A stretch of DNA of 64,000 nt. Source: Escherichia phage SD2. A program made the translations under genes and the position numbers. Below, in pieces: positions 31,567 through 59,821 of this stretch. The notes beneath the pieces are model-generated. The model did not search any database, was not told where the DNA came from, and was given only the letters and a program-made list of their open reading frames with translations. The first letter of the stretch is position 1, and each line of letters starts with the position of its first letter. The stretch lies in sequence record PQ821640; one strand, 5' to 3'.

Positions 31567-32304
31567 ATGGATGCTTTAAATTTTGTAACAGCAATCCGTG
31601 GATTAATCAACGAGCAAGTTGCGGAAGTACATACATCTTTACCTGTAAGGGTAATTGGTGTAGATTATGGATCTAAGACAGTAACTTTAGAATCTATCGT
31701 AAAAAATACCAGATCTACTGAAGATGAAATAGATTACCCAACATTCCACGATGTTCCTTTTATGGTAAATGGTGGTGGTACAGGTAGAATTTCATTTCCA
31801 ATTAAAGCAGGAGATATTGGTGTTGTTGTCTTTTCAGAAAGAGATCCGTCAAACGCTTTCCAGACAGACGGGGATACAGCCAGCAGCGGAACATTAATTC
31901 AACCTTGTGGTTTGTATCCAGCCTGTTTTATTCCTAAGATAGCAACAGCTACAGATTCTTCAGAAGAAGTAGATTCTGAAAAAGTTGTTATCTCAAATAA
32001 TAAGCAAACTTACGCTTCGTTTGATCCTAACGGTAATATATCTGTGTACAACACACAAGGTATGAAAATAGATATGACACCAAACAGTATCGTTCTTACT
32101 GATGCAGGAGGAGGAAAACTTACACTGCAAGGTGGGACTATGACATATAAAGGTGGTACTGTAAATTTAAACGGTTTAACAATCACACCTGACGGTCGTA
32201 TGAAAGATAGTGGTGGCATTGGTTTACACACACATACACACCCTGTACGCGGTGTTGAAACTGGTGGTAGCACTGTTACTTCCGACAAACCAAATGGAGG
32301 TTAA
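31567..32304 (+). CDS. baseplate spike protein (gpV/gp5 N-domain-like)
   Basis: N-terminal pattern PVRVIGVDYGSKTVTLE...IKAGDIGVVVFSERD typical of gpV OB-fold; Gly-rich C-terminus. Confidence 0.5.
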   Translation: MDALNFVTAIRGLINEQVAEVHTSLPVRVIGVDYGSKTVTLESIVKNTRSTEDEIDYPTFHDVPFMVNGGGTGRISFPIKAGDIGVVVFSERDPSNAFQTDGDTASSGTLIQPCGLYPACFIPKIATATDSSEEVDSEKVVISNNKQTYASFDPNGNISVYNTQGMKIDMTPNSIVLTDAGGGKLTLQGGTMTYKGGTVNLNGLTITPDGRMKDSGGIGLHTHTHPVRGVETGGSTVTSDKPNGG

Positions 32305-32307
32305 CAG

Positions 32308-32943
32308 ATGGGAATACCATTTGATTTAAAACTTGATGGTTCTAACGATTTAGTAATGGTGGATGGTGATTTAACACTAACCACAACTAAAAGTGAAATT
32401 GCAGCACAGACGCTTGGAATAACACTTAGAACTTTCCGTGGAGAATGGTTCCTCAATTCTAATTTTGGGGTTCCATATCTGCAAGAGATTATTGGTGTTG
32501 CCAAGAAGAAAGAGATTGTTGATCGCATTTTCTTATCAACTATCGCAAGTAATGTTTATATAGATAATATTAATTCCTACACGTCCTCTTATGATAGAGA
32601 TGATAGGTATTACTCAATGAACGTTACTGTTACAGTTGGTGAACAAGTTGTTAGTGCGCTGTTCAGTACACAGCCGTCTGAAGAATATATTTATCCAGAA
32701 GCTGGTGATGATAATGCAGCAATCACTTGTGAAGCATTTGAAATTGTTGAATCTGCAAATAGACTCTATCGCTTTATTAACATTGTTGGTCTTCCTAAAG
32801 ATACTTATTCTACTTGGTGGAATGAATGGTCTAACGAGGCATTGCTTGAAAAATACCTTGTTAACGAAGCCAATAAAGGTCTTGCAACCAATTACAACTA
32901 TGCTATAACAGCAACAATGGGAGCTACAAATAATAATGGCTGA
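32308..32943 (+). CDS. baseplate wedge protein (gp25/gpW-like)
   Basis: N-terminal GIPFDLKLDG...DLVMVDGDL...EIAAQTLGITLRT pattern of gp25-like proteins. Confidence 0.45.
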   Translation: MGIPFDLKLDGSNDLVMVDGDLTLTTTKSEIAAQTLGITLRTFRGEWFLNSNFGVPYLQEIIGVAKKKEIVDRIFLSTIASNVYIDNINSYTSSYDRDDRYYSMNVTVTVGEQVVSALFSTQPSEEYIYPEAGDDNAAITCEAFEIVESANRLYRFINIVGLPKDTYSTWWNEWSNEALLEKYLVNEANKGLATNYNYAITATMGATNNNG

Positions 32944-33409
32944 TTTAACTACAATCAAGGTGTCTGATCTACCTGTAACAACATCTGTTTCAGACACAGA
33001 TTATTTTGTAACAGATCAATCAGGTATCACTAAGAAAACATCATTACGTGTTCTTCTTGCGGGTGCTGGTGTTACACGAAATCGTCTTTCTGCAAGGGGT
33101 ACTGTCACAAATACCCTAGCTTTAGATATTAGCACGGCAGAGTATTTCTCTGCCACTTTATCTAGTCCAACTTGCAGTATTTCATTTAGTAATGTTCCAG
33201 TTACAACTAACATTGTTCAAAACTTTACTCTATCCCTACGTCAAGGAAGTGGAGCAAATAAAGTAACGTGGCCTCAATCTGTTAAATGGAGTTTTGGTCG
33301 CGCTCCTGTTTTGAGTTATAAACAGGGAGCTACAGATATTTTTGAATTTGTTAGTTATGATAATGGAGCTACCTGGATAGGTAGTTTAGTGATGGCAGGA
33401 GTGATTTAA
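32936..33409 (+). CDS. small tail fibre-related protein with fibre N-terminal motif
   Basis: N-terminus TIKVSDLPVTTSVSDTDYFVTDQ parallels the N-terminus of the 38462 tailspike. Confidence 0.4.
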   Translation: MADLTTIKVSDLPVTTSVSDTDYFVTDQSGITKKTSLRVLLAGAGVTRNRLSARGTVTNTLALDISTAEYFSATLSSPTCSISFSNVPVTTNIVQNFTLSLRQGSGANKVTWPQSVKWSFGRAPVLSYKQGATDIFEFVSYDNGATWIGSLVMAGVI

Positions 33410-36285
33410 TGTCAAGAATTAAGCACAGAATTGACAATGTTTTTCAACTGATCGATGGACATATTCAGTTCTTAGATCGTAATACAGGTTTAACTGTAGA
33501 TCCTACAGTGCAACACTATGTATTAAACCCACAAAACGTTCTAGCTAATAACAGACACTTTATAAACTGGACTGCTCAAGAAGGGCAACCAAACGGGGAT
33601 GCTACAACAGAAGGTCAATCCGTGCTTATTCTTGGTTGCGCTTATGCATACCTGGCTTCCGGCGATACAAAGTATTTAGACTCTGCTAAAAAATATTGGC
33701 AAGCATATATAGATTACTTCTTTGGTGGTCAACCTATCCCAGATCCGCCAGCAAAATATCGCCCTAACTGGATTATTAACGGTAAAGAACCGCGTCTTGC
33801 ACACTATCCTCTTACAGATGATGGCTACCCTACACACGGAGGTTTTAAGGGTAGCTTAATGACGTGGACTAACGGTAGAACAGTTATTCCTCATGGTGCT
33901 CCTCATTGGGGAGAATACCTTGACAAAGCATGGTTTGCTTTTAATGGTAATCTAGGATGGAACTCTGTAAACGCTACAGTATATGCTGTTAATGCAGATG
34001 GTACAACAGATTGGTCTAAGAAGGGAGATCAATGGGATGTTGATTGGATCATTGATCGTCTAGGACGTAAAGTTGACTGGGATGGGAATATCTTAGAAGA
34101 AGGTTTTCCAACATCTCAATACGGAACAGTTCAACTAAAAAATACTTCTGTAAACGGTACATATAAATTTAACTACGCGACTTGTAACCCTGTTGAACAC
34201 GGTGGTTATTTAATGGAGCGTAACACTATGTGGCATAACAGACCAGTTAACGTTCCGGTAGAAATGGGCTTTCAGGATAATGCGTCAGATGCTGAAACTT
34301 GGTGGTGTGATGCTAATTACCTGATGTACCAAATTACAGGAGAAAGAAAATATTGGCTATGCTGGCAGTCTTCACTGTTAGTGTGTCAAGATTACTCAAA
34401 CATTGATATGTTTGATAAATTCTTCCGTAAGTCTACATATGCAACTATCCCGTTTACAGATGGCATCTCTTACGATTATTCGTATCCATCTACAGCAATA
34501 CCTAAATATTCAAGAGATACTTTAGGCTATATTGTTATTAGACAAGATGTTGCTGCTCAAACAACATTAGAACAGCAAGCCATTTGGTTTAAAGTTGATC
34601 AGAACTCTAAGTTACGAGTCCAGTTTCAAGGTGTAGATGACGCAGGACATGGTATTCTTTTCCGTCCAGAGTTGGAATTAAGTAAGACCAAAGATGAAAA
34701 TAACACAGTAACTTACCGTTGTGGCTTACCACTGGGTACAGCTCATATGACAAGCATGGATATTCCACTATCCAGCTTTATGAGAAGCACCCCTCCGAAT
34801 GGTGGAACATATATTATCGCAGACCCGCGAATTATTGTTGACTGGGGTGACAATACTGTGGTACAATATAAGTATGTAACAGGTATTGCTGGAACTAATA
34901 ATGACCAGATTGTTACTGCATCAATGGATACGGATGGTGGTATCACTGTTGGTTTTTGGTTAACTCCTACATCAAAAGCTAATGTTAAGTCTATCACATA
35001 TAGAACATATGAAGATGATTTTAACATGACTATCACGGATGCTCAAGGTTGGAGATGGTGGGCTATGCTGCCTAAAACGCAAGGAGCATGGAGTACGAAG
35101 ACTTTATCAGCTTCTGATTTTCAGTTAAGTGCTTACCAGCCTAATCATCCAGATACAGATCCTAAACCTTCGGCAATAAATCTTACTGCGGTAGATCAGG
35201 TAAATTTAGTTCTAGATACGGCTCCTGTCAATGGTTTAACAGGAACAATAGATTTCTATTGTATTAACGATGTACCTGAAAGATATTCATCATCTTCTGG
35301 TGATGATTATACCATGTACTTCCGTATCACTGTACAGGCTTCAAGTCCTCATACTGCTAAGTTAGGTGATTGTACTATTATTGACTATAAGTTAAATAGT
35401 CTTAATTACACACCAGGAATAATTCCATTCTCTAATATCAGTGACCCAAACACTGCATTATACGATGGATGGCGTGGTATTCCATACCCAGGATACCAGT
35501 ATCCTTCCTTATACTGTTTCGCAGGTAGGGATATTGATTGGACACGTTTAAACAACAGTATTGATTTCTTGTATGATGCTCAAATGTGGTTTTATAACAC
35601 GTTTGATCCTGTGATGCCTGGGCCTATGGCACAAGCATATGTGTGGGATCGTTGGGATGCAAGAAAATACGGTGAACCGAATACGTTTACAATGAAACAC
35701 TGGAATGAAAAAGCGTGGGATGGTTATGAAGCTCGTGCATTTTACTGTGCTTGCCATGCAGTATACGAACTTGTACAAAGAGGAGAAACACCTCCTGAAA
35801 AACTAGTAACAGTTTGTAAAAATTGGATCAACTATCTTAAATGGTTCCAAGACAATAATGATGGAAGAACACCAACTATCTTTAACCCAGATGGTACAGT
35901 TCTTGCACCTATAGATGACTTTACTAGTCATATGTCTGCACTGTTTATGGCGGGTTGTTCAATCATGGGTTTGGCAGGTTATGATTCACAAATTCCAAAC
36001 ATTGGTATTGTAGCAGACAGATGTTTTGATCTGATTCAGCAAAACTATATTGTGCTTTCCCCTAACCATCCGATGAATGGTTCTTGGAGTGTTGCACCGC
36101 GTCCAGATTCAGATAACGGAATGTTCTTTGGTTTCCATGCTGGAGAACTATTACGTGGTTTTGGTTTATATGCCTTGTATCGTAAACTAAACCCTCAAAA
36201 CGCTTTACCAATTTTGGACAATAGTAACATACCGACACTAACTGTTCTAACTATGAATGATATTAGTGTTGATGTAACCAAATAA
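33409..36285 (+). CDS. large tail-associated protein with alpha/alpha-barrel glycoside-hydrolase-like segments (candidate depolymerase)
   Basis: 958 aa; segments LILGCAYAYLASGDTKYLDSAKKYWQAY and WWCDANYLMYQITGERKYW resemble (alpha/alpha)6 barrel enzymes. Confidence 0.4.
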   Translation: MSRIKHRIDNVFQLIDGHIQFLDRNTGLTVDPTVQHYVLNPQNVLANNRHFINWTAQEGQPNGDATTEGQSVLILGCAYAYLASGDTKYLDSAKKYWQAYIDYFFGGQPIPDPPAKYRPNWIINGKEPRLAHYPLTDDGYPTHGGFKGSLMTWTNGRTVIPHGAPHWGEYLDKAWFAFNGNLGWNSVNATVYAVNADGTTDWSKKGDQWDVDWIIDRLGRKVDWDGNILEEGFPTSQYGTVQLKNTSVNGTYKFNYATCNPVEHGGYLMERNTMWHNRPVNVPVEMGFQDNASDAETWWCDANYLMYQITGERKYWLCWQSSLLVCQDYSNIDMFDKFFRKSTYATIPFTDGISYDYSYPSTAIPKYSRDTLGYIVIRQDVAAQTTLEQQAIWFKVDQNSKLRVQFQGVDDAGHGILFRPELELSKTKDENNTVTYRCGLPLGTAHMTSMDIPLSSFMRSTPPNGGTYIIADPRIIVDWGDNTVVQYKYVTGIAGTNNDQIVTASMDTDGGITVGFWLTPTSKANVKSITYRTYEDDFNMTITDAQGWRWWAMLPKTQGAWSTKTLSASDFQLSAYQPNHPDTDPKPSAINLTAVDQVNLVLDTAPVNGLTGTIDFYCINDVPERYSSSSGDDYTMYFRITVQASSPHTAKLGDCTIIDYKLNSLNYTPGIIPFSNISDPNTALYDGWRGIPYPGYQYPSLYCFAGRDIDWTRLNNSIDFLYDAQMWFYNTFDPVMPGPMAQAYVWDRWDARKYGEPNTFTMKHWNEKAWDGYEARAFYCACHAVYELVQRGETPPEKLVTVCKNWINYLKWFQDNNDGRTPTIFNPDGTVLAPIDDFTSHMSALFMAGCSIMGLAGYDSQIPNIGIVADRCFDLIQQNYIVLSPNHPMNGSWSVAPRPDSDNGMFFGFHAGELLRGFGLYALYRKLNPQNALPILDNSNIPTLTVLTMNDISVDVTK

Positions 36286-36293
36286 GGAAAATA

Positions 36294-38453
36294 ATGAAAC
36301 AGGCTATTTTTACTGTAACTCGAAATACGAGAGTAAATGCCAGTTCATTCAGCTATAAGACCGTCGATGGAACGGCGGTCGCTGGTAGAGATTATGTAGC
36401 TAAACAGGGAACAGTAACGTTCCCTTCTGATGCAGATTCTGCTACTGTAGTGGTTGATGTATATGAACGTCCGGCAAACTCTTTAGATCTTTATTTTACT
36501 CTTGAGATTACTAGCATAAGTCAAAATAACATGATGATCAATGAAGAAATTCGTTGTGTTATTACGACTAATCAATCGAATACAACCCCGCTAACTTGGC
36601 CTGTTGTGAAGTCTAGAATGTTTGATCCTAAGTTTTGGACAATAGATTCTCAAGCAACAGAAAGTTGTTCTATTATCTCTAATGGTGATTCTTTCACAGC
36701 AAGAATGGTTAATAGGACAGTGGCTGGTCTTGCTGGGATTATTTGGTCAACTTACGATAAATATGATCACAAAGGATTAGGCTACCAAGAACATTCTGAC
36801 TTAAGTAAAGAGAAACTTTGGTTTAAGATGGAACTTAGTCAAGGTGTTCCTGGATTAAAAGAAGAAAAATTATTGCCATCCTTAACAGTGACACTGAAGG
36901 ATGAAACAGTTCATTATGTATCTCTAAACTTTTATGCAGAAGAAGTTTCAGAGGATGGTAAAACAGCAACAATCAAATTAGATTTCTCAAACTTAAAATC
37001 GGGGCCAGAAAATAATATTGTTGTTGACACTACACAAATAGATAATATGTTCTTCTCCTTGATCTCAACGAGGTATCAAGAAATTGAAGATATTATTCCT
37101 GTGGATAATGTGGATCTTTCCTTTAAGTTTACCATACTGGAGCCTGATACTGGTTACAGTATGATGAATATGGGTAATTTAAATGTTCCAGCACACACCA
37201 TAAGAATGTGTACATCTTATGATGATATGTATAACCTGACCCCAGAGCGAGTTATTTCTAACACCTATAGATTAGGTTATAGGGATATGATTAACCACTA
37301 TAATGGTATGTCACACTATTATCAGTTTAGTTGGGATGCTGGTTCTAATAAATGGGCTTTGAATAGAACAGAATATTTAAACCCAGCAACAGAAGCATGG
37401 TTTGATAATTTCCACGCTAATGCAAAAGCTATGGGCTACACAGTAATGAATTCCTTAAGTTTTGAACTTATGAGTACAGTGTGTCCTGTAGAATGGGTAC
37501 AACATACTTGGAATGATGATCTTGCTGCTACAGGTTATGAGCCACCAAGTTATGTATTATCTCCTTCGATTGATGAAGGGATGAATTATTTACAAGGTGT
37601 GATAAATAAGATAGCCTCTATATCCGCTGCTAATGATCTTCCGGTTATTATTCAGGTTGGTGAACCGTGGTGGTGGTATAACACAGCTACCAATCTACCG
37701 TGTATTTATGATTATACAACCAAAGTTGCATTTAATAATGAAACTGGATTATATGCACAAGATGTTGGTACAGTTAAGAATTATAAAACTGGTACACCAT
37801 ATGATGAATATTATGCATTCCTATCTAAAACATTAGGACTGCGTGTTGCTAAATTTGCAACAGATACTAGATTAGCATATCCTGGAGCAAAAGTTACATT
37901 GTTACCATTTGTGCCATCCATTTTGGGTAATGGTATGATGGAGTTTGTTAACTTCCCTAAAGATTATTATATCCCAGAAAACTTTGACTTTTATTGTTCA
38001 GAATGTTATGACTGGTTGTTGGAAGGTAAGATGGAAAAATCTTTCGACGCTATCACAATACCTAATGAGCAACTAGGTTTTAGTTACGATAAGATACATT
38101 ATCTTGCAGGGTTTGTTCCAGATGCAACTCTAGCACCATTATATGGCTTTGATCCTGAATCAAACTATAGAACATATTTGTGGAAAATGATTATAGGTAA
38201 TATTGTATTGAATGACCAGAAGTTTGTTGGTTTATATCAATACATATGGGCTTACCCACAAATAATGCATGATTCAATAACTGTTCTTAATTCAAAATCC
38301 CAAGTGTTTTATATGGGTAATGTGCCTTTGAATTGCTACTTGCAAGATATCACTCTTAAACAGGTAAATGTTGAGATTGCCACTATAAGTGGAATTACAT
38401 TAGCCACTAAATCTGGAGAAGATTTAGTAACAACACAAAAATTTTATATATAG
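36294..38453 (+). CDS. large tail fibre or baseplate protein with Calx-beta-like N-terminal segment
   Basis: N-terminal DGTAVAGRDYVAKQGTVTF resembles a Calx-beta motif; 719 aa. Confidence 0.35.
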   Translation: MKQAIFTVTRNTRVNASSFSYKTVDGTAVAGRDYVAKQGTVTFPSDADSATVVVDVYERPANSLDLYFTLEITSISQNNMMINEEIRCVITTNQSNTTPLTWPVVKSRMFDPKFWTIDSQATESCSIISNGDSFTARMVNRTVAGLAGIIWSTYDKYDHKGLGYQEHSDLSKEKLWFKMELSQGVPGLKEEKLLPSLTVTLKDETVHYVSLNFYAEEVSEDGKTATIKLDFSNLKSGPENNIVVDTTQIDNMFFSLISTRYQEIEDIIPVDNVDLSFKFTILEPDTGYSMMNMGNLNVPAHTIRMCTSYDDMYNLTPERVISNTYRLGYRDMINHYNGMSHYYQFSWDAGSNKWALNRTEYLNPATEAWFDNFHANAKAMGYTVMNSLSFELMSTVCPVEWVQHTWNDDLAATGYEPPSYVLSPSIDEGMNYLQGVINKIASISAANDLPVIIQVGEPWWWYNTATNLPCIYDYTTKVAFNNETGLYAQDVGTVKNYKTGTPYDEYYAFLSKTLGLRVAKFATDTRLAYPGAKVTLLPFVPSILGNGMMEFVNFPKDYYIPENFDFYCSECYDWLLEGKMEKSFDAITIPNEQLGFSYDKIHYLAGFVPDATLAPLYGFDPESNYRTYLWKMIIGNIVLNDQKFVGLYQYIWAYPQIMHDSITVLNSKSQVFYMGNVPLNCYLQDITLKQVNVEIATISGITLATKSGEDLVTTQKFYI

Positions 38454-38461
38454 GAGTAAAA

Positions 38462-40810
38462 ATGTCAACTACAATTACTAATTTACCCGAAACATCAAAA
38501 GTTAATGATTCTGATTACCTGGTTTTAGACCAACCTGATAAGACTGTTAAAAGCACAGTTTCCAACTTTCTTACTGACACTGGGGTGGTTTTAGCCACCC
38601 AGCTAGAAGATATTTCTGGAGCTACCAAGTATCCAGAACTTCAAATGTCGCGCTGGAGAGATGAAGGTGATGTTCGTGGGTGGGGTGCAAAGGTTGATGG
38701 TGTAACAGATGACTCTGATGCATTGATTGCAGCAATTAACTCTGGTCGTTCTAAATTGATCTTACCAGCAGGACGTTGTGTTATCTCTAAAACTTTAGAG
38801 ATTCCTGCCGGGGTAACTCTTGAAGGGCAGGGTATTGATTATTGGGATACTTGGCGTCCTGATGAAACTCGTTTGTTGAAGAGTTGGGATAAAGGAACCC
38901 ATATTGTAGTAACTGGTACAGGTCTTCGTAATAAGACGTTTGGTAACTTATCTAATGAACGTCCTGTTAAAACTGTATCCGGTACTGTCTGTGAGTTTAC
39001 TAAGTTTACTAATGAAGATGCATCAGGTACTACTCCAGCCACGTTGAAGTCATTCAGTGTAGCTGTGTCTGTAACCCATGCATCCCAGTTAAAGAACTTA
39101 CGTATTCTACTCAATAATGATGGTATTGATGGATATAACGATTTTGTCTCTACAGCTTTGGGTGATGATTGGGACATTGGTCTGCATGTATATGATAGTT
39201 CAGAAGCTGTTGTTGAGAATGTTCAGGTATGCGGTTACTGGAGAGTTGCAGGTACTCTGCTAACAGAGAATGATGGTTCCTTCACTATGATAGGGAATCC
39301 AGAAAGAACTCGATTCAATCGTTTCTTTACTCAGGGTATCCGTGGTCTGTTGATTCGTAATAGTCCACAGATTGATGTAGTTAGTAATACAACTGACTCT
39401 GTTACGTTTAAGAAACAGACCTCTTTACGTATTACTGCAACTAACTCATTCAGAATCCCTGGTAGTGCAACACAATATGTATTCACCGGTTCTACTACTG
39501 ATGGTACTAACATTACTTTGACTGGAGTTACACCAGCATTGCCAGTATCTATTGGGGTTATTCGTTTCCCTAATATTGGGAATAACTTCTCTGGTACTGT
39601 GTTTGAGAATACTGTTACTACAAGTTTTGAACACTCGTCTGGTAAATCATCGGATACACTTGGTCTGCCTGTAGCATTCGCTATGGAGATTGATGGTTAT
39701 CCTATGCGTAACCTTCGCTTCGATAAGTTTAAAGCACAGACTACCTTTGATAAGGGTAATACCCTATTTGGTGATTGCCGTGACATTAAGATTACTTCTT
39801 CTGAATTTGAGAATGGTTTAGTAGTAGCTTATAGCCTTGCAGAGACTCAAGGGTATACAGGTAACCTTCGTCTGTTTGCATCTGATCTTCAGGCATCTAC
39901 TGATACAACTGGATTTAATCCAAGAGATGCATTCTTAGATAATAAACAGATTAAGACAGACTTTACCGATGGTTCCTTTATTTTGAAGAACTGGCGAGAT
40001 ACCAATACACGAATTCAGTTCTCTGATGGTAGTGATGGTATTGTCATGCGAGAAGGAGCAAGTGAAGCATCTCCTGGCGGGTACTATATGTATACCAAGG
40101 ATGGATTACGTTGGCTTTCCCTGAATGGTGTAACCAAAGGAATAGATTTCGCTGTCTCCAACGGCAGTATTAAATATGCTACTGACAACAGTGTGGTATT
40201 TAACTGGTACGGTGCATCTGGAAACATGAACTTTAAAGGTACTATTTCCCCTCTGGTAGATAATTCTAAATCATTGGGTACAGGTACATTCCGTTGGTCA
40301 CAGTTGTTTGCTGGTAGTGGTACTATCAATACATCTGATGCAAGAGAGAAAACAACTCCTCATGCTATTACGGATGATATATTAGATGCTTGGGGTGATG
40401 TATCTATTATTGCTTTCCAATGGCTTAACATGGTTAAAGCTAAAGGTGGTGATAGTGCTCGTTGGCATTTTGGCGTTATTGCTCAACAGGTCAGAGATGC
40501 ATTCAATGCGCATGGTATTGATGGAACCAGATTGGGTCTGCTTTGCTATGACGAATGGGAAGACCAATACGAACCTGTAATGGCTACTCGTGATGTTGTA
40601 ACCCGTATTGAAGTTTCTGAGGGAGTATTCGTAGAAAGAGTCACTCAAGAAGAATATGATACTGGTGAGACTAAGTTAGTTGTTGCAGCAGGTAGTCGTT
40701 GGGGTATTCGTCCAGATCAATGTGCTTGGTTAGAGGCTGCTTACCAACGTAGACGTAGTGATAGAATTGAAGAACGTTTAGCTGCTTTAGAGAAACGTTT
40801 ATCAAATTAA
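38462..40810 (+). CDS. tailspike with pectate-lyase-like beta-helix and C-terminal self-cleaving chaperone domain
   Basis: WGAKVDGVTDDSDALIAAIN motif; C-terminal SDAREK cleavage-site motif followed by a conserved chaperone-like tail ending RLAALEKRL. Confidence 0.65.
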   Translation: MSTTITNLPETSKVNDSDYLVLDQPDKTVKSTVSNFLTDTGVVLATQLEDISGATKYPELQMSRWRDEGDVRGWGAKVDGVTDDSDALIAAINSGRSKLILPAGRCVISKTLEIPAGVTLEGQGIDYWDTWRPDETRLLKSWDKGTHIVVTGTGLRNKTFGNLSNERPVKTVSGTVCEFTKFTNEDASGTTPATLKSFSVAVSVTHASQLKNLRILLNNDGIDGYNDFVSTALGDDWDIGLHVYDSSEAVVENVQVCGYWRVAGTLLTENDGSFTMIGNPERTRFNRFFTQGIRGLLIRNSPQIDVVSNTTDSVTFKKQTSLRITATNSFRIPGSATQYVFTGSTTDGTNITLTGVTPALPVSIGVIRFPNIGNNFSGTVFENTVTTSFEHSSGKSSDTLGLPVAFAMEIDGYPMRNLRFDKFKAQTTFDKGNTLFGDCRDIKITSSEFENGLVVAYSLAETQGYTGNLRLFASDLQASTDTTGFNPRDAFLDNKQIKTDFTDGSFILKNWRDTNTRIQFSDGSDGIVMREGASEASPGGYYMYTKDGLRWLSLNGVTKGIDFAVSNGSIKYATDNSVVFNWYGASGNMNFKGTISPLVDNSKSLGTGTFRWSQLFAGSGTINTSDAREKTTPHAITDDILDAWGDVSIIAFQWLNMVKAKGGDSARWHFGVIAQQVRDAFNAHGIDGTRLGLLCYDEWEDQYEPVMATRDVVTRIEVSEGVFVERVTQEEYDTGETKLVVAAGSRWGIRPDQCAWLEAAYQRRRSDRIEERLAALEKRLSN

Positions 40811-40820
40811 GCAAGCAAGG

Positions 40821-41015
40821 ATGCTTGCTCCTACTAGAAAAATAAAGAGGTACTATAAGGAGACGCAAAGGGCGTATTCCCTACCTGCTGATATTGCCCC
40901 AGGTACTACTGCCATTAGTCTTAGTGCTGCTGTACTTGTGCATTCAGCGGGTTCTGTAGACCTTGGGGAATTAGCTGTATCTCGTGATTTAAAAAGTAAT
41001 GAGAACGCATTATGA
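40821..41015 (+). CDS. hypothetical small protein (64 aa)
   Basis: Short ORF; start overlaps a hairpin. Confidence 0.25.
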   Translation: MLAPTRKIKRYYKETQRAYSLPADIAPGTTAISLSAAVLVHSAGSVDLGELAVSRDLKSNENAL

Positions 41016-41257
41016 GAAAGTTTTTAATCGGAATGTTTTGTACATATCCTGATAATAAAGTCAGCTCTACTAAAGTTTGGAATGCTATTGGTATGATTGT
41101 TATGTCCAGTATGTTTATTTATTTGGGAATTGATAAAGAAATTCCTGAATGGATGGGCTGGGCTTTTGTTTTTATGATCACACCATCCAGACTAATGAAG
41201 AATTTAATAGATTTACGTTGGGGTAGATCACCTGCCCCTGATAAGGAGGATAACTAA
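41012..41257 (+). CDS. holin-like small membrane protein (81 aa)
   Basis: Two hydrophobic segments (VWNAIGMIVMSSMFIYLGI and WMGWAFVFMITP) and charged C-terminus. Confidence 0.35.
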   Translation: MRKFLIGMFCTYPDNKVSSTKVWNAIGMIVMSSMFIYLGIDKEIPEWMGWAFVFMITPSRLMKNLIDLRWGRSPAPDKEDN

Positions 41258-42744
41258 TGGCAGATTATGGTTTAACAGATGCTGGTTTTGTCATTCCAAC
41301 GTTTGATGATATTTTAAATAATTATATGACAGCATTGAAAAACACTTTCGGTGCAGATACAGCTACATCCGAAGATACTGTCTTTGGTCAACTGTTTCGT
41401 ATTATTGCATATACAGATTACACCCTTTGGGAAGGTATGCAAGGTGTTTACAATACCCAAACCTTAGATGGTGCAGAAGGTATTTACCTTGATGAAATTT
41501 TCTCTAAAAGGGGTTTTTATCGTAAAGCTGCTTCTGCTGGTAGTGGTTATGCTTATGTTAAATCTAACAATAAGGCAGCTTGGACTTATGAACTAAGCAC
41601 AGATGTTTATTTTAATGCCGATAACGATTTGACATATTATGTCAGTGCACCAACAATGTTGAATGCTAAGATTGGAGCATATACCATTTCTAAAGCAAAC
41701 GCAACAGCTTCTGGTGAAACTTCTATTACTTTCTACATTCAAAGTGCTATTGATGGTGGTCTTAACAGTAAAACACTAAGTCCTAGCAATACAAACTTTA
41801 TTGTAGATCTCACGAATTTCATTAAAGCTAACGTATCAACAACAGATCGTGCTTTAGTATGGAATGATGCGAGTAATGTTTATATGGGTTATAATCCAGA
41901 AGATAATGTTAACCCAATAGGTCTAGTAACACCAGTGAAATTTTATGCATCCATTGCAATTGGTACAAAATGGAGTGAAATTCCAGTTACGTGTTCAGAC
42001 GTTGGTTATAATCCAGTAGGTACAGAAAGTATTACAGGTATTTCTTCAACGTTTACAGGCTTTTTAGATACAGGTAACTTCTATCCTTTCTCTCCAGGTA
42101 CAGATGTTGAAACAGATGCAGAATTCCGTTCTCGTTTCAATGATAATATGGATGAAGCTAATGCTGCTACTCGTGCTGCTATTGTTAAAGCTCTATTACT
42201 GACAGATGGTGTGACAAAGGTTAAGATTTATGATAACCCTACACTACACGATCAAGAACATGCTCCAGCTATGACATTCCAAACTATTGTGTACGGTGGT
42301 ACAGCAGAAGAAGTTGCACAGGTTATTTATAATACTAAGCCTATCAACACCTTAACTTATGGTACGACAGCAATTACTATCATAACAGAAGATGGTGGTC
42401 AAGAAGTAATTCGTTTTTCTCCTGGTGATAATGCGGAATACTCACTTAAACTGGTATATCAAACTGGTAATGGTAGTGTGTTAAGTACAACAGAAAGAGA
42501 AAATATTGTTTCTGCTCTTGCAAACTTACAGGCTTATTTTGAATTAGGGTCAACAGTAACTAACGACCAGATAAAAGGTGTAATTTATTCTGCACTTGCG
42601 TTCGGACGCTTGACTTCTCTCCGTGTTTATGTTAAACTTAATACTGAGGATGACAGTAAATATAATGAGGGAGATATCACTCCAGCGTACAATGTTGTAC
42701 CATCCTTTGACCTTGATAATATTTCCTACGAGTACGGAGTCTAA
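41257..42744 (+). CDS. baseplate J-like protein
   Basis: N-terminal pattern (GFVIPTFDDIL...LDGAEGIYLDEIFSKRGFYRKAASAGSGYAYV) typical of baseplate J family; followed by I-, H-, G-like genes. Confidence 0.5.
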   Translation: MADYGLTDAGFVIPTFDDILNNYMTALKNTFGADTATSEDTVFGQLFRIIAYTDYTLWEGMQGVYNTQTLDGAEGIYLDEIFSKRGFYRKAASAGSGYAYVKSNNKAAWTYELSTDVYFNADNDLTYYVSAPTMLNAKIGAYTISKANATASGETSITFYIQSAIDGGLNSKTLSPSNTNFIVDLTNFIKANVSTTDRALVWNDASNVYMGYNPEDNVNPIGLVTPVKFYASIAIGTKWSEIPVTCSDVGYNPVGTESITGISSTFTGFLDTGNFYPFSPGTDVETDAEFRSRFNDNMDEANAATRAAIVKALLLTDGVTKVKIYDNPTLHDQEHAPAMTFQTIVYGGTAEEVAQVIYNTKPINTLTYGTTAITIITEDGGQEVIRFSPGDNAEYSLKLVYQTGNGSVLSTTERENIVSALANLQAYFELGSTVTNDQIKGVIYSALAFGRLTSLRVYVKLNTEDDSKYNEGDITPAYNVVPSFDLDNISYEYGV

Positions 42745-47739: not shown

Positions 47740-49710
47740 GTGATTTTAACACGTCCAAATAGTGCCATTGCAGACATGGTAGAGTCTCGCTATAGAAAGC
47801 GTAGAAGTTTTGCAAGTGGTTTTACCTTAAGAGATGCTCGTGAAGCATTGCTCTTTGAAGCTGACGGTAACTACTATCAGTGGAAAGGTTCTCTACCTAA
47901 AGTTGTACCTGCTAACTCTACTCCTACATCTACTGGAGGGATTTCAGATACAGCTTGGAAAAATGTGGGTAATGCAGATGACATTGCTCAAATAGAATCA
48001 GAATTAGATGCTATTGAAGCTGAAATTGAAGATCTTAGAGAATCCATCCCAGAAGCTGGTAAATCAGCTTACCAGATTGCCGTAGACAATGGTTTCCAAG
48101 GCACTGAGACACAGTGGTTGGCTTCTTTAAAAGGTGATCCAGGTGCTCCATTAAAGCTATTAGGGACACTATCTAATACCAACCAATTACCTACAAGTGG
48201 AAACAATGCAGGGGATGCATGGATTGTAGGCGAGAATATGTATGCTTGGGATGGTACTGCTTGGAGAAAAGTAAACTCACAGGGGCCAGAAGGTAAATCT
48301 GCTTATGAAGTATGGCTTGCAGCAGGAAATGAAGGTACAGAACTAGACTATCTTGCTTCAATTAAAGGTGATAAAGGGGAGCCTGGCCCAGAGGGGCCAC
48401 AAGGTGTGCCAGGTAACAATGCTAATGGTTTTGATTACCAAGGCGCAGCTAATTCCGTTTCAGATCTTCCTTCTGCATCTCATGGAAACACATCTCAAGC
48501 ATGGAGTGTTGGTACATATCTATACGTGTCAAACGGTGTAGAATGGATCAATATGGGTGCTATAGTGGGGCCAAAAGGAGATAAAGGCGACAAAGGAGAT
48601 AAGGGTAACACTGGTGATTCAGCTTATCAAGTCTGGTTAAATGCTGGTAACGTTGGTACTATTGACGAATATATTGCCTCTCTGAAAGGAGAAAAAGGTG
48701 ATAAGGGAGACAAGGGTGATCAAGGTGCACAGGGTATACAAGGCTTGACGGGGCCAACTGGTGCAGGGTTGACCATTATTGACATTCTGACTAGCACTTC
48801 TGAACTACCACAAACTGGAGAAGATGGTGATGGTTATCTGATCAATAATGAACTTTGGGTCTGGTTGCAAGGAGCCACAGAGTGGACAAATGTTGGTCGT
48901 TTAGCTGGTACTCCAATCACTGCAAAAGGACACGTTGCGTCTGCAAGTGCACTTCCTCCTACAGCCAATTACGGTGATGCTTATCTGACGGAAGATACAG
49001 GTCATCTTTACATTTACACCTATAATGAACAAACTCAAACTGCTGAATATGTAGATATGGGTAGTTTGAAAGGTGATAAGGGTGAAAAAGGTGAGAAAGG
49101 TGACGCTGGTACTAACGGTACAGACGGTGCAACTTGGATTGTTAAAACAACAGATCCAATCTCTAGTGATGGTAAACAAGGTGATTATGCCTTTAATATC
49201 TCCACTGGCGAGGTGTTCTTAAAAACATCTGCAACTGTCTGGACTTCTCAAGGTACACTACCTAGTATCACAGATGCACCTAGTGATGGTAAGACTTATG
49301 CTCGTAAAGATGGGGCATGGGAAGAACTCACTAATTCTGTAGATGGTCAAGATATAGTTCCAACAAAAGTAACAACTAATTTTATAGAGGTTACAGCATA
49401 TACCAACAATTCTGTTACAGGGGACTGGACACCTCCAGGAACACATAACATGAATGTGTTGAATCTTACTGGTAACGCTACTATAAAAGCATGGCCTGGT
49501 GTCGAAGATAGTACAAAACCTAAACCATTCTCTGCAATAGTTTATCTTATCCAAGATGCCACTGGAGGTCGTACTGTTACTTTAGATCCATCTTACAAAG
49601 TAATTGGTTCCAGTGATATTAATACAGATCCTAACGGAGTAACAATACTACAACTAACATATTGTGGTGTTGGCGATTACGTGGATGCTATTGTTGCTAA
49701 ACGCACATAA
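47740..49710 (+). CDS. collagen-like tail fibre protein
   Basis: Four Gly-X-Y tracts (GDKGEPGPEGPQGVPG, KGDKGDKGDKGNTGDS, KGEKGDKGDKGDQGAQGIQGLTGPTGAG, KGDKGEKGEKGDAGTNGTDG) and three SAYQ...WL...GTE...YLASLKG modules. Confidence 0.6.
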   Translation: MILTRPNSAIADMVESRYRKRRSFASGFTLRDAREALLFEADGNYYQWKGSLPKVVPANSTPTSTGGISDTAWKNVGNADDIAQIESELDAIEAEIEDLRESIPEAGKSAYQIAVDNGFQGTETQWLASLKGDPGAPLKLLGTLSNTNQLPTSGNNAGDAWIVGENMYAWDGTAWRKVNSQGPEGKSAYEVWLAAGNEGTELDYLASIKGDKGEPGPEGPQGVPGNNANGFDYQGAANSVSDLPSASHGNTSQAWSVGTYLYVSNGVEWINMGAIVGPKGDKGDKGDKGNTGDSAYQVWLNAGNVGTIDEYIASLKGEKGDKGDKGDQGAQGIQGLTGPTGAGLTIIDILTSTSELPQTGEDGDGYLINNELWVWLQGATEWTNVGRLAGTPITAKGHVASASALPPTANYGDAYLTEDTGHLYIYTYNEQTQTAEYVDMGSLKGDKGEKGEKGDAGTNGTDGATWIVKTTDPISSDGKQGDYAFNISTGEVFLKTSATVWTSQGTLPSITDAPSDGKTYARKDGAWEELTNSVDGQDIVPTKVTTNFIEVTAYTNNSVTGDWTPPGTHNMNVLNLTGNATIKAWPGVEDSTKPKPFSAIVYLIQDATGGRTVTLDPSYKVIGSSDINTDPNGVTILQLTYCGVGDYVDAIVAKRT

Positions 49711-49749: not shown

Positions 49750-52569
49750 ATGTATCCTATTCCTTTATTTATGTCAACAACACCAGCTTCAGTAGTAACA
49801 GCTACATCTATAACCACTTCCTCTATTGGTATTGCAATAGTTGGTAGTAAAAAGCAACTGACATACACAGTTTCACCAGAAGATGGTGCGTTATTTGATA
49901 TAGCTTTTTCATCTTCAGATAATACCAAAATGGTTATAGATAATAACGGTATGATGGAGTTTGTTGCTGAAGGCGGTTTTGATGCAATAATGACAGCTAA
50001 AAATAATTTAGGTGCTGTCTTAACTGATCAATCTGGTGGCTATGCTTCAGAATTAAGTGTGTACACTGAAAGTCTGTCTGCTATGGATGCAGGAACTACT
50101 CAACAATTGGTTGCTACAATCAGTCCAGAAGGTGCTAAAGACCTTCCAGACATGGTAATTACGTACACCACAACAGATCCAGAAGTAGCTACTGTAAGTC
50201 CTACAGGATTAATAACTGCTCTTAAAGATGGCAGTTGCCGTATAGGTTGCACTGCAACTTATCAAGGAACAGTGGTGGCCTCTGATAGTTCTTATTTAGG
50301 TGTTAATGCTATTCCTGTTATTTCTAATGTAACAGCCGTGGCAAACAGCTATGGAGACATTCGTGTTGCTTGGGATGTAGCTGATCCGCTAGATGGTGAT
50401 ACTTATACTGTAGAAGTATTAGATTTGAGTAATAACAGTGTCCAGTGGACTACAACAACCACGAATACTTACGCTTACTTTGATATCTCTGACTCTATTC
50501 CTCTTTATGGGTTTGCTCCAACATACCTTAAAATTAGCGTTAAGAGCACCAAAGCAGCACCCGTTATCTTTAATAACTCAATAGCTACAGATGATTCATT
50601 CATTAAAGAAGTTATTGTCTTTGCTGGACAAGATAACGTAAATGCACACTTTACAGAACTATCTGGTGCAAATAAAGCAGCAATGAGTAGCACAACAGCC
50701 CGTAATGCATATGCTACGCAACGTGGTTTAGCAAATGCTGAAGTTCTTCCGTTAAATACAGCTTCTGGATCATCAGCAGCAGATAAATATGCTGACGATA
50801 AAGCCGGAACAGGTACACCAGACAACTACTGGTATGATCTGGATAACACAGCAGATGGGCCATGCTTAACTAACTTTATCACTAAAGTCACACCTTATGC
50901 AAGTAAGGTTAAAGCGATTATTTGGGGACAAGGTGAAAATGATGCTGTATCAGCATCTTCAACTGTTGCAGGTAGATACAGTAACACTACACGTTACCAT
51001 GATGCTACGATAGCCATCTTTGATAAGATGCGTACAATAGTTCCTGCTTCTCAAGCAAAAATTGTTTGGCAGATCCTAGGACGTTCTTATTTATATGGTG
51101 TAGAAGTTAATGGTGTGGATTGGCAGAAATACAGAAATGTACAAAGAACCATCTCTACAGCACGTGACGATGTTATCATTGGTTCTTGGGTGGATGGTGC
51201 TGAACGCTACAGTGGTTATGTTTATGAAGAAGGTATTGCTGGTCGTATCCATTATATTTCTTCTGTATACCAAACAGCAGCTACAAAACTTGCTAAATCA
51301 GCAGCAGACGGTACAGACTTAACATCAACACCACCTGTTTGGGTTGATATGGCTGTTCCAACTGGAGCAACAGCTACTTCCCAAGCTAATCAAGATACAA
51401 TTTTAGCATGGGATGCTCAAGGTTATAGTAAACACTACTTCCGTAATATTAACGTCTTAACAGCATCTGTATTAACTGAACAAACCCTTAATACGAACAG
51501 TTATACGTTTACCTATGCAGATCAAGTAGAACAATATGGTTTTGCAGCAGGAACTACTATATTTGATGTTGCATATTATGACGAAGCAAATGATGTGTTA
51601 TCTCCTTTAGTACGTTTTAATGTTAGCGTTACAGCAGGAAAAGTAGAAGATAAACCTGTCGTGATGGACTATGATTTGACGCAAGAAACTCTTCCATCAG
51701 ATGTTAAGGTTAATGGTGGGAACTCTTTTGCTCGTGCCTCTGGAGATAAACTTGTAGCCACTAACACCTTGGTTGCTCCGTTGGAGTATGTTGGTACTAC
51801 CCCTGTAGGTAGACGTGTAACAGCTAACACAGCTACACAAATTTTTGTCAACAACGCCTTAACAAGTGCAAGCCCGTGGGTAAAGACCAACTTAACTGTT
51901 GCAGCTTCATCTGATAACTCTCCGGCTGGAACTACTGCTAATGTATTCAAATTAACTCCGACTACAACCTCTGGTAGTCATATCTTAACTGCAACATATA
52001 CTAACGCGTACAACATATCTGCCGGACGTAACTGGTCTGCCTCTGTTTTCTTGAAAGCGAACGGGATTACTAAGGCCAAACTAAGATTAAAAGCAGGAAC
52101 TGAAGTTAATGAGGGTACTTTTGATTTAGCAGCAGGTACATTCACAGGAAGTGAAGCTAATATTATATCTATGGGCAACGGTTGGTATCGTGCTATTCTG
52201 CATAAAACAGGGATAGCCAAACAGTCCTCCATAAGTTTTGAAATAATTGCCTTGGATGCAACTGGTGCGGAGATTTTCGCTGGAGATGGTACTAGTAACC
52301 TTGCAGTTTGGTTGCCACAGCTTGAAGGTGCTTCTACAGGAGACACATCAAAAGCTGGATCGCCTTATGTCTGCACATATCCTGGAAATTTAGGAGGAGT
52401 ATCCTTCACTATACCAAGGAACGGACATACTGGTGTGGATGTTTACTATTCCAACGGAGACGTTGTTCGTGACGTATTCTCTGGTACGGCATCTACTTGG
52501 ACAATAAACTACTCCAGCTTGTACGATTGGGGATCAGTCTTTATTACAGGTTTGAAATATTACGACTAA
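49750..52569 (+). CDS. tail fibre or spike with SGNH/sialate-O-acetylesterase-like domain
   Basis: Blocks VIVFAGQDN and IIWGQGENDA match esterase blocks I and III; Ig-like N-terminal repeats; 939 aa. Confidence 0.55.
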   Translation: MYPIPLFMSTTPASVVTATSITTSSIGIAIVGSKKQLTYTVSPEDGALFDIAFSSSDNTKMVIDNNGMMEFVAEGGFDAIMTAKNNLGAVLTDQSGGYASELSVYTESLSAMDAGTTQQLVATISPEGAKDLPDMVITYTTTDPEVATVSPTGLITALKDGSCRIGCTATYQGTVVASDSSYLGVNAIPVISNVTAVANSYGDIRVAWDVADPLDGDTYTVEVLDLSNNSVQWTTTTTNTYAYFDISDSIPLYGFAPTYLKISVKSTKAAPVIFNNSIATDDSFIKEVIVFAGQDNVNAHFTELSGANKAAMSSTTARNAYATQRGLANAEVLPLNTASGSSAADKYADDKAGTGTPDNYWYDLDNTADGPCLTNFITKVTPYASKVKAIIWGQGENDAVSASSTVAGRYSNTTRYHDATIAIFDKMRTIVPASQAKIVWQILGRSYLYGVEVNGVDWQKYRNVQRTISTARDDVIIGSWVDGAERYSGYVYEEGIAGRIHYISSVYQTAATKLAKSAADGTDLTSTPPVWVDMAVPTGATATSQANQDTILAWDAQGYSKHYFRNINVLTASVLTEQTLNTNSYTFTYADQVEQYGFAAGTTIFDVAYYDEANDVLSPLVRFNVSVTAGKVEDKPVVMDYDLTQETLPSDVKVNGGNSFARASGDKLVATNTLVAPLEYVGTTPVGRRVTANTATQIFVNNALTSASPWVKTNLTVAASSDNSPAGTTANVFKLTPTTTSGSHILTATYTNAYNISAGRNWSASVFLKANGITKAKLRLKAGTEVNEGTFDLAAGTFTGSEANIISMGNGWYRAILHKTGIAKQSSISFEIIALDATGAEIFAGDGTSNLAVWLPQLEGASTGDTSKAGSPYVCTYPGNLGGVSFTIPRNGHTGVDVYYSNGDVVRDVFSGTASTWTINYSSLYDWGSVFITGLKYYD

Positions 52570-52571: not shown

Positions 52572-52601
52572 AAAAAGGAGCCATTAGGCTCCTTTTCTTT
52601 T
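52572..52601. terminator. bidirectional rho-independent terminator between convergent operons
   Basis: AAAGGAGCC-ATTA-GGCTCCTTT hairpin with T-runs on both strands. Confidence 0.6.
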
Positions 52602-52604
52602 ATC

Positions 52605-53036
52605 TTAATCAGTGAAAATTACGCTTACATCTTCTTTAGAAAAGAGTTTATGATTTTCACCTTTTGTCTCAAGAGTTTCATACAGGTTAAGAAGTTCTGA
52701 AACATCTTTCTCTACCAGTTTCTTCAATGTTGCAATTTTCTGTTTGCGATTCTTAATACGTTCAGCTACAACCTTACGTTGGTATCCGGCAGTACGATAA
52801 CCTGAGAAAGTTACACCAGTGAGACTTGCAGTTACAGGATCGTAATGACGTTCAATCTGAAATTTATTAAAAGGTACAGCGTCATCACGAATAATCTTAC
52901 CGCCATTACTTACTTGACGAAGACCAGTAACTTGTTCCAGTCGTGCCATAGAAATCTTTGGAGACAGACCAGAATCCAGGTTCATACCGTTGTTAATCAG
53001 TGCTTTCAGGGTGATTTTGCTGTTCAGTGTACTCAT
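52605..53036 (-). CDS. hypothetical protein (143 aa)
   Basis: ORF behind GAGGAA; overlaps 3-prime end of methyltransferase gene by 44 nt. Confidence 0.4.
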   Translation of the reverse strand: MSTLNSKITLKALINNGMNLDSGLSPKISMARLEQVTGLRQVSNGGKIIRDDAVPFNKFQIERHYDPVTASLTGVTFSGYRTAGYQRKVVAERIKNRKQKIATLKKLVEKDVSELLNLYETLETKGENHKLFSKEDVSVIFTD

Positions 53037-53724
53037 TTAGTCGTTCCTCTGCTTGCTTAAAAATATTTACATCGGCTTCACAGCCTAAGTATTCTCTACC
53101 TGTTAAAAGTGCCGCAACTTGTGTTGTTGCACTTCCAGAGAAGAAGTCTAAGACTACATCTCCTTCGTTGGTATGTATATTAATAAGGTCACAAAACAAA
53201 GTCAAGTGTTTTTGTGTCGGATGAAAACGATCTGCTCCTTGATAGATAGGATACTCAAACACACCCTTATGGTAGGAAGCATTGAAGGTTGGCTTCGAAC
53301 CTTTAACACAAACAATAGCCATCTCTTTAGCGTTACTAAGGTAGTTAACACCACTATTGATGGGTACAGGGTTTGTTTTAATCCATTCAATAGTACGGAA
53401 CATACGAAAACCAAGCGGTTCAAGGATTTCACGTAGTTCCTGGATCTTCCAGATATCATACCAAACTATGCAAGTACCACCTTTTCTAAGCACCCTATAG
53501 GCTTCTTTGAATACTTCTTTAAAGTAAGGAATATCTACAACATCCCAGTCACCAAAGTTGTAAGATACACGGAATCTATCCGTATCTTTTCCAGTAGGTT
53601 CTCCAGATTGAAAATTTGTGTCACGAGAAATAGCATATGGTGGGTCAGTAAGAATCAAATCTACACTATTGCTTTCGAGGGTTTGCAGGTAGTTTAATGC
53701 GGTGTTGTTTACAAATTCGCTCAT
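52993..53724 (-). CDS. DNA methyltransferase (beta-class amino-MTase, N6-adenine or N4-cytosine)
   Basis: Motif IV DPPY (LILTDPPYAI) N-terminal to motif I FxGxG (VLDFFSGSATT). Confidence 0.75.
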   Translation of the reverse strand: MSEFVNNTALNYLQTLESNSVDLILTDPPYAISRDTNFQSGEPTGKDTDRFRVSYNFGDWDVVDIPYFKEVFKEAYRVLRKGGTCIVWYDIWKIQELREILEPLGFRMFRTIEWIKTNPVPINSGVNYLSNAKEMAIVCVKGSKPTFNASYHKGVFEYPIYQGADRFHPTQKHLTLFCDLINIHTNEGDVVLDFFSGSATTQVAALLTGREYLGCEADVNIFKQAEERLNEYTEQQNHPESTD

Positions 53725-53733
53725 TATATCTCC

Positions 53734-53763
53734 TTCAAAGAAAAGGAGCCGTTAGGCTCCTTA
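53734..53763 (-). terminator. rho-independent terminator (minus strand)
   Basis: AAGGAGCC-TAAC-GGCTCCTT hairpin followed by TTTCTTTG on minus strand. Confidence 0.5.
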
Positions 53764-53784
53764 TATTCACACAATATTTAATTA

Positions 53785-54732
53785 TTAGAAACAGTGCAGG
53801 AAGTTTCGACCATATTGCAAACCAATAGGAGCAAACGGGATATCATCATCGAAATCTTGAACAACAGGTTCTGGTTCTTTCGGTGCTGGCTCTTTCTTCT
53901 CTACTTTTTTAGTTTCTTTCTTAACTTCTTGTACTGGAGTAGACATTCCACGGATAGCAGCAGCTACTTTATCAGACAAAGCAAGAACTTCACGAGCAGC
54001 TTCAATAATTTCTTCTGCCGTTACAGTTTTACCTGTATGATCACGACAAGCGTTAAGAATTGCGTGTCCAACTGAAGCACCAAGATCATAGTCAGTCACA
54101 TCAACGCCACGATCTTTAGCAATTTCAGCTTTCAGAGTAACAGTTGCAGATTGTACCACACCAGCCAAGTCGAAAGCATCACCTTTCACACCAGCACGTA
54201 GAAGCTCCAGAGCGCCGTTTATAGCGTGTCCTGTTTCAATCCCTACGGTATCACGTTTTTTGTAGTTAGGCTTGCTACCGTCATTATTAGAGGGCTTATT
54301 TCCACCTTTTGAAGAGGATTGCGCTTGCTGAACACCTTCTGTTGAAAGAATAGTGATTTTACCTTTAGAGGAGTTGTAGTATGTTTTGCCATTCCATTCG
54401 GAAGGTTTAACATCCATAGTTAGTTCTACACCTTTTTCGATAGTAACCCACTTATCACCATCTTTAACTTGCAGGTTTTCATGTTCTGGGTGCAGTTTAA
54501 CTTCACCTAGGCTAACCCAAACACCTTTATCATCAGCACCAGCACCTTTCTCTTTAATAAGCAGAGATGCTTTGTGAGTTGATTCAATTTTCTTATCTGG
54601 CTGACCTGCAACCTTAATATAAGAGACTTTCATTTCATCAAACTTATCTAGTTTGACATATTCGACAATACCTTCAGCCCAGAATGCTTCTTTTTTAGTA
54701 CGACGGTCGATTTCAGAATTAATTACTGGCAT
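53785..54732 (-). CDS. single-stranded DNA-binding-like protein with host-SSB C-terminal tip
   Basis: C-terminus DFDDDIPF matches the E. coli SSB tail tip; Gly/Ser/Asn-rich linker; N-terminal domain not obviously canonical. Confidence 0.5.
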   Translation of the reverse strand: MPVINSEIDRRTKKEAFWAEGIVEYVKLDKFDEMKVSYIKVAGQPDKKIESTHKASLLIKEKGAGADDKGVWVSLGEVKLHPEHENLQVKDGDKWVTIEKGVELTMDVKPSEWNGKTYYNSSKGKITILSTEGVQQAQSSSKGGNKPSNNDGSKPNYKKRDTVGIETGHAINGALELLRAGVKGDAFDLAGVVQSATVTLKAEIAKDRGVDVTDYDLGASVGHAILNACRDHTGKTVTAEEIIEAAREVLALSDKVAAAIRGMSTPVQEVKKETKKVEKKEPAPKEPEPVVQDFDDDIPFAPIGLQYGRNFLHCF

Positions 54733-54748
54733 AAATTCTCCTCTATAA

Positions 54749-55147: not shown

Positions 55148-55158
55148 TCAAGTCCTCA

Positions 55159-55187
55159 TAATAACACATAATTGTAAGGTTTGTCAA
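55159..55187 (-). promoter_or_regulatory. sigma70-like promoter on minus strand (TTGACA-N17-TTATTA)
   Basis: Consensus -35 in the 43-nt gap upstream of 55147; very short leader makes it uncertain. Confidence 0.3.
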
Positions 55188-55190
55188 CAC

Positions 55191-56389: not shown

Positions 56390-56416
56390 AAAAACTCCTT
56401 TAAAATCAAAGAGATG

Positions 56417-59731: not shown

Positions 59732-59772
59732 TCTCCCTCCTTAAAATATTTCTAAAGTCTTAATTTGTTAAT

Positions 59773-59801
59773 ACTGTACCATAAATTAATTGTTTTGTAA
59801 A
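59773..59801 (-). promoter_or_regulatory. sigma70-like promoter on minus strand (TTTACA-N17-TACAGT)
   Basis: About 40 nt upstream of the polymerase start; overlaps a GC hairpin. Confidence 0.3.
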
Positions 59802-59816: not shown

Positions 59817-59821
59817 TCTTG

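Follow-up and report, generated by a model that had tools for sequence, protein, structure and literature searches.

A homologous N-terminal module on a small fibre protein and an exchangeable tailspike of a phi92-like phage, with a probable role in tail attachment

The N-termini of phage receptor-binding proteins (RBPs) are, as a rule, their virion-attachment ends (PMC6872550). In phages equipped with several RBPs, such as those with the gp37 adaptor of K1-5, K1E and SP6, the gp63.1 and gp66 proteins of G7C, the TSP1-4 set of the Ackermannviridae and the Klebsiella groups of Latka et al. 2019 (PMC6872550), a short conserved N-terminus is found on several RBPs and the enzymatic bodies are swapped, with breakpoints just past the conserved part. 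Docking in these systems is on T4 gp10-like domains that belong to an anchor RBP or an adaptor. For the myophage phi92, a cryo-electron microscopy (cryo-EM) study (2026; PMC13450770) identified gp139 as the sheath initiator, located fiber I on top of the C-terminal domain of gp145 and fiber II on fiber I's base, and left gp140 and the proximal fibre arm unplaced. Here we describe an N-terminal module of about 45 residues in Escherichia phage SD2 (sequence record PQ821640), from which a stretch of 64,000 nucleotides was analysed, referred to below as the window. The module heads two proteins of the window, a 157-amino-acid (aa) orthologue of phi92 gp140 and a 782-aa tailspike encoded in the slot that holds gp143, the endosialidase endoN92, in phi92. 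By megablast of positions 32000-41500 against a phage collection the window belongs to Justusliebigvirus, with ~98% identity to phi92, alia, PaulScherrer, BME3 and others over 76% of the query in two pieces.

The locus resembles the multi-RBP phages in its short N-terminus on more than one RBP, its swapped bodies and the position of its breakpoints. Pfam searches with 17 structural proteins from the window gave no match to a Gp10 family, at a sensitivity limited to that of Pfam hidden Markov models (HMMs), and the locus is therefore not filed as a branched RBP system of the G7C, CBA120 or K1-5 type. Its anchor also differs in kind, being a 45-residue module with a wide family of its own rather than a lineage-specific 7-11-mer. 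Compared with the 'multivalent adsorption apparatus' of phi92, gp140 is identical in sequence, but the spike body in the window is a different beta-helix spike and not an endosialidase. No discussion of the N-terminal likeness between gp140 and gp143 was found in the phi92 literature, in a search that did not include Schwarzer 2012.

The similarity of the two N-termini is homology and not a product of chance or low complexity. The 157-aa protein begins MADLTTIKVSDLPVTTSVSDTDYFVTDQ and the 782-aa protein MSTTITNLPETSKVNDSDYLVLDQ; both open reading frames (ORFs) and both N-terminal sequences quoted in a preliminary description of the window agree with the ORF list, and the end coordinate 38540 given there is the end of the motif within the second gene. 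That description proposed that the two proteins start with the same motif, and pairwise and profile alignment bear it out with significant similarity. In BLASTP, residues 9-46 of gp140 and 5-42 of the spike align ungapped, with 15/38 positions identical and 24/38 positive (expectation value, E, of 9e-6 for the pair). Two cross-validated profiles, each built without the other protein's family, were run on a set of 1,509 ORFs that covered the window plus five related loci. An HMM from N-termini of long spikes only recovered gp140 of the window with E=6e-13, and an HMM from gp140 orthologues only recovered the 782-aa protein with E=1.4e-6. The only other match with E<0.1 was BIS47_26, the third motif protein of a Mydovirus (E=9e-4 and 4e-3), and the best non-member in both searches reached E=0.14-0.28. 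A broad 50-sequence profile (A3) gives E=6e-17 for gp140 and E=7e-15 for the 782-aa protein, values that are not independent since its alignment includes both N-termini of the window. In the alia genome (148,000 of 148,442 bases) the module occurs in exactly two ORFs, the next best match having E>0.5, and no ORF in the first 50 kb of phi92, gp15 included, carries it. As profiles that exclude the family recover each protein and no other ORF of the window or of alia matches, we regard the homology as real. The gp140 and spike versions are ~35-39% identical to each other and each is conserved among its own orthologues, with L12, Q28, T32 and K34 invariant or nearly so across genera. A weak second match of the motif profiles lies at gp140 aa 88-111 (window 33197-33268, VTTNIVQNFTLSLRQGSGANKVTW); it was treated as noise rather than as a second copy and could reflect a similar hairpin.

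In the tailspike gene the module is the fixed part of an exchangeable protein, since nucleotide identity with relatives ends just past it. An AGGAG ribosome-binding site lies 8 nucleotides (nt) before the start codon, and the first 70 residues are 94% identical to endoN92; the linker and the start of the beta-helix are common to endoN92 and PDB entry 9vvr. From there the 98% nucleotide identity stops at 38612 relative to PaulScherrer, 38685 relative to alia and 38709 relative to phi92, and resumes at 40855, 41012 and 41030, respectively, such that the swapped cassette begins at codons ~50-83, right after the module. With the first 70 residues as the tblastn query, phages whose bodies differ retain residues 1-43/54 at 89-95% identity, and at least 14 representative clusters at 50% identity start with the same MSTTITNLPETSKVN and continue into different bodies. 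The best matches of the spike body in the phage collection are at 60% (Phi05_1387 B) and 56% (Vectrevirus) identity (tblastn). The body is not an endosialidase: in a Pfam search no endosialidase beta-propeller was found in the 782-aa protein, only the last 42 positions of PF12219 at 16.9 bits against a cut-off of 25. The phage collection searched apparently lacks this allele of the gp143 slot (cassette at 38710-41030). On its right-hand side, the small membrane-protein gene that follows the spike (81 aa; 41012-41257) differs from phi92 gp144 (88 aa) only in the first ~15 residues, which mark the right-hand recombination junction, and a 64-aa ORF (40821-41015) overlaps that junction.

The second carrier, gp140, appears to be a minimal fibre whose anchor passes almost directly into a small distal knob. 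It is matched along its length by phrog_9017 'tail fiber protein' (positions 1-159/159, E=1.3e-69) and is 100% identical across the Justusliebigvirus records listed. An 8-nt overlap joins its start to the gp139 stop, and the sequence TAATG combines its own stop with the gp141 start; gp140 and gp141 are adjacent and start/stop-coupled in three representative genomes (phi92-like, Seunavirus and Vequintavirus). The knob region is matched by tblastn in tail fibres of many unrelated phages, and conservation this wide of a fibre-tip knob suggests that gp140 may have a binding function of its own. The preliminary description had offered gp140 as a truncated paralog of the tailspike, a proposal that does not stand, as residues 54-157 form a fibre-tip knob unrelated to the spike and the gene is complete and conserved, with its own orthologues of 222-224 aa. 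Alignment with P0020 and P0094 shows gp140 to be this orthologue of Seunavirus and Vequintavirus minus an internal segment of ~67 residues. That segment, with a domain like PF18668 (Tail_spike_N), is cleanly gone from gp140; PF18668 is present in P0020, and Pfam finds no match to it in either gp140 or the 782-aa protein. The top Foldseek match of the knob, from a low-confidence model with a mean predicted local distance difference test (pLDDT) score of 56, is the capsid spike of Pseudomonas phage Pa223, a protein with a TNF-like C-terminal knob (9ny6_C; probability 0.97, E=1.8e-3, template modelling (TM) score 0.37). This protein, gp52, has a 160-residue triple beta-helix between its two parts and sits on the capsid three-fold axes; its N-terminus is not matched by the motif profile in the PDB search. 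PDB sequence searches with gp140, gp141 and a family-specific motif profile (A1) returned nothing meaningful. An expected likeness of the knob to the C-terminus of the gp151 homologue was dropped, BLASTP similarity being insignificant (E=1.3).

The arrangement recurs beyond Justusliebigvirus. In four rV5-like genera the module, starting at residue 1-5, heads two or three tail proteins per genome, and their genes always lie between W-like and J-like baseplate genes. Seunavirus (SSE121, 4MG) has a 224-aa gp140 orthologue and a 712-aa colanidase, a pair in which similarity runs for ~100 aa through the module and the PF18668-like domain. Vequintavirus RudolfGeigy has proteins of 222 and 1270 aa, and Mydovirus BIS47 proteins of 606, 1309 and 275 aa, with neither a gp140 nor a gp141 homologue in its W-to-J region. 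In rV5 itself both gp43, the gp140 orthologue, and gp41, the second motif protein, were detected in phage proteomics (PMC3606486). The most similar pair of modules is one of within-genome paralogues in Seunavirus (51%) and Mydovirus (55%) and not in Justusliebigvirus or Vequintavirus; concerted evolution of the modules was considered and dropped, 45 residues being too noisy. Word-indexed homologue searches yielded merely close relatives or short gene fragments.

Our results favour, as a probable reading, a model in which the module is an N-terminal attachment element and paralogous anchors mount the gp140 knob fibre and the exchangeable spike on the wedge-associated fibre complex. We infer docking from the position of the module at residue 1, from its conservation upstream of the breakpoints and from its recurrence, across four genera, on two or three tail proteins of each genome. 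It is the sole element common to two otherwise unrelated proteins, and gp140 consists only of module and knob, so that its place in the virion, if it has one, must depend on the module. Of the earlier proposal of a common docking module, the homology of the two N-termini stands, and their position, conservation and recurrence fit virion attachment; the notion of truncation falls away. The module would comprise a short strand, a beta-hairpin around an invariant Q-x-G/D-x-T-K/R-K and a short helix, and in trimeric tail fibres and spikes would make up the virion-proximal end. The two paralogous copies of a phi92-like phage, on gp140 and on the spike in the gp143 slot, would each plug their own trimer into the fiber I/II complex, with gp145 as its attachment point and gp141 and gp142 as probable components. 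There is room for two such anchors per wedge, and the two copies probably occupy two distinct sites. Docking could be on the baseplate itself or on another fibre protein, and the partner could be gp145, gp141 or gp142. The three anchors of the Mydovirus in the absence of gp141 argue that gp141 is not required. With the anchor constant, the distal receptor-binding or depolymerase body could be swapped by recombination just downstream and assembly left undisturbed.

The module also belongs to a far wider family. An HMMER search with a 51-position profile (A2) of 1.84 billion representative proteins (E<=1e-3) found it in at least 2,913 protein clusters at 50% identity, in carriers ~100 to ~1,500 aa long. 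It begins at residues 1-5 in 114 of the 130 top matches, and the domains downstream are of fibre or spike type, including pectate-lyase beta-helix, SASA esterase, collagen, RCC1, YadA stalk and T4 Gp10_C. The consensus reads x-K-I-S-x-L-P-x-A-x6-D-x-L-P-x2-Q-S-G-x-T-K-K-x-T, and tblastn with the consensus peptide reached podophages (Roseobacter CRP-4/5), Flavobacterium siphophages, Erwinia and Ralstonia jumbo myophages and others, where the usual annotation of a carrier is fibre or structural protein. The module is matched by neither a Pfam-A nor an NCBIfam model, and literature searches on motif strings (KISELP and similar) found no relevant paper. It is possible, if a good deal more tentative than docking itself, that a very large uncurated superfamily acts as a portable, general-purpose plug mounting RBPs on tails, that the module is its founding example from a phage under structural study, and that it marks gp140 and the spike of the gp143 slot as two proteins branching from the proximal part of fibers I and II. 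Among individual carriers, one (P0072) shows a T4 Gp10_C adaptor domain (E=6e-26) after three copies of the motif, and in another (P0083) the motif recurs at a period of ~85 residues beside a match to DUF5907 (PF19264), a repeat of unknown function; this match covers the half-repeat after a motif copy. From the spacing in P0083, the DUF5907 unit may contain the motif; DUF5907 has no match to the window proteins or to nine other carriers.

Several observations weigh against docking as the function of the module. Among the top matches, 43 of the 130 carry two to five copies in tandem, and siphophages, podophages and myophages with no obviously related attachment partners all carry the module, two features that fit a generic structural repeat better than a plug for one particular partner. 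There is no solved structure of the module: the sole match in a PDB-wide profile search is crAss001 gp22 (7qoj; residues 28-56, E=4e-4), an N-terminally docked trimeric fibre whose docking hub accommodates residues 1-26 only (PMC10172136), such that the motif lies after the hub-bound segment. The AlphaFold2 monomer of gp140, built from a 19-sequence alignment, reaches a pLDDT of only 38-51 in the module region; a single-sequence model reaches 31, and no claim on module structure is drawn from the AlphaFold2 model. These data raise the alternative that the module is a structural 'N-cap', a generic repeat that nucleates trimers or starts shafts and that both proteins carry because they are trimeric fibres, with docking specificity residing elsewhere, for example in preceding residues or in partners such as gp141 and gp142. 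The occurrence in all three tail types and in very different hosts, the tandem arrays and the gp22 hub residues ahead of the motif make a cap a serious rival, even if we consider it unlikely on balance. The resemblance of the hairpin part to gpW, a beta-hairpin-containing Pfam family whose threshold it passes at 23.9 bits in one carrier (P0086), points the same way. A cap that merely starts a shaft, however, would not need each genus to keep its own highly conserved version while the bodies vary. In the rV5-like phages a module that begins at residue 1-5 leaves no other N-terminal segment for docking, and gp140 is without any other candidate docking region.

A more distant alternative, raised in the preliminary description, is that gp140 and the tailspike compete for a single attachment site. 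On this view gp140 would cap the site, hold its place or regulate how far it is occupied by the spike. The two proteins do bear the same type of module, and gp140 is very small and was not placed in the phi92 virion. Yet the divergence of the two versions, each well conserved in its own lineage of orthologues, and their stable co-occurrence in every genome examined, as a pair or trio in all four genera, favour two distinct sites. Moreover, the gp140 gene is translationally coupled to gp141 and not to the spike gene, and the presence of its tip knob in many phages speaks for a separate binding role; we consider competition improbable. Chance resemblance of two short Thr/Ser/Asp-rich N-termini, for which the shortness of the stretch (38-47 aa) and a pairwise identity of just 39% might speak, is refuted by the BLASTP alignment, by the separation of the family-excluded profile matches from the best non-member and by the (near-)invariant residues across genera, and we give it practically no weight.

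Table 1. Coordinates of the fibre gene block and of the parts of the two module-bearing proteins in the window.
Feature	Position	Strand	Basis or remark
gp139 orthologue, sheath initiator (W-like)	32308..32943	+	phrog_120 'baseplate wedge subunit'; upstream edge of fibre gene block
gp140 orthologue, 157 aa, putative minimal fibre (anchor and knob)	32936..33409	+	ORF list; identical to phi92 gp140
N-terminal module of gp140, aa 1-47	32936..33076	+	HMM matches aa 1-47/50; BLASTP aa 9-46
C-terminal knob of gp140, aa 54-157	33095..33406	+	C-terminal ends of phrog_7760, 22179, 32568, 27998 'tail fiber protein'
gp141 orthologue, large tail protein, 958 aa	33409..36285	+	phrog_2871 'tail protein' E=0; encoded between the two module genes
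gp142 orthologue, 719 aa	36294..38453	+	Calx-beta domain, N4-gp65-like N domain and TIM barrel
Tailspike in the gp143 (endosialidase endoN92) slot, 782 aa	38462..40810	+	ORF list; phrog_1171 'tail spike protein' E=6.9e-149
N-terminal module of tailspike, aa 1-47	38462..38602	+	HMM matches aa 1-47
Linker and body start still common with phi92 gp143	38603..38709	+	Recombination breakpoints within
Exchanged receptor-binding body, pectate-lyase-like beta-helix start	38710..40333	+	Pfam PF12708 23.5 bits, under its cut-off
Peptidase_S74 intramolecular chaperone domain, aa 625-685	40334..40516	+	PF13884 E=5.3e-13; PDB 3gw6 E=1.5e-36
gp145 orthologue, Baseplate_J wedge protein	41257..42744	+	PF04865 E=3.5e-11; downstream edge of block; reported fiber I attachment point

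The gene order of the block (Table 1) is the same as in the phi92 annotation. The gp141 orthologue has no module of its own and no Pfam or PDB sequence match. The gp142 orthologue is matched by PF23845 (E=1.2e-81), PF23844 (E=4.9e-21) and PF03160 (E=1.7e-9) and, in the PDB, by 9lc0 (Gp64 and non-contractile tail sheath); besides Calx-beta it contains the N domain and TIM barrel found in phage N4 gp65, the non-contractile sheath protein, and gp64. In Justusliebigvirus PaulScherrer the annotation of its counterpart reads tail-fibre protein, with glycosidase and deacetylase domains. Further along the window, the gp151 homologue (47740-49710, GTG start) has PF18668 Tail_spike_N at aa 11-77 followed by collagen repeats, and a 939-aa Big_2-containing protein is encoded at 49750-52569, where phi92 annotates the 202-aa gp152. 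The first ~90 residues printed for phi92 gp152 are nearly identical to the N-terminus of the 939-aa protein, and in phi92 the gp152 gene is either truncated or continues differently downstream. The GC skew is positive in the middle of the window and negative up to ~6 kb and again from ~52 kb (window 1-6000 and 52600-64000); beyond ~52.6 kb the negative values go together with ORFs on the minus strand, one of which, at 52993-53724, is DNA methyltransferase-like.

The anchor arrangement follows a known design principle in a well-studied group of phages, to which it adds a large uncurated family without a structure. Phi92-like phages serve as models for multivalent host recognition and are therapy candidates. 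That exactly two proteins per genome carry the anchor narrows the assignment of the phi92 fibre densities, and residues ~45-55 offer a safe junction for the engineering of chimeric spikes. More widely, a profile of this uncurated module would help to flag tail-fibre and spike genes, together with their virion-proximal ends, in metagenomic phages.

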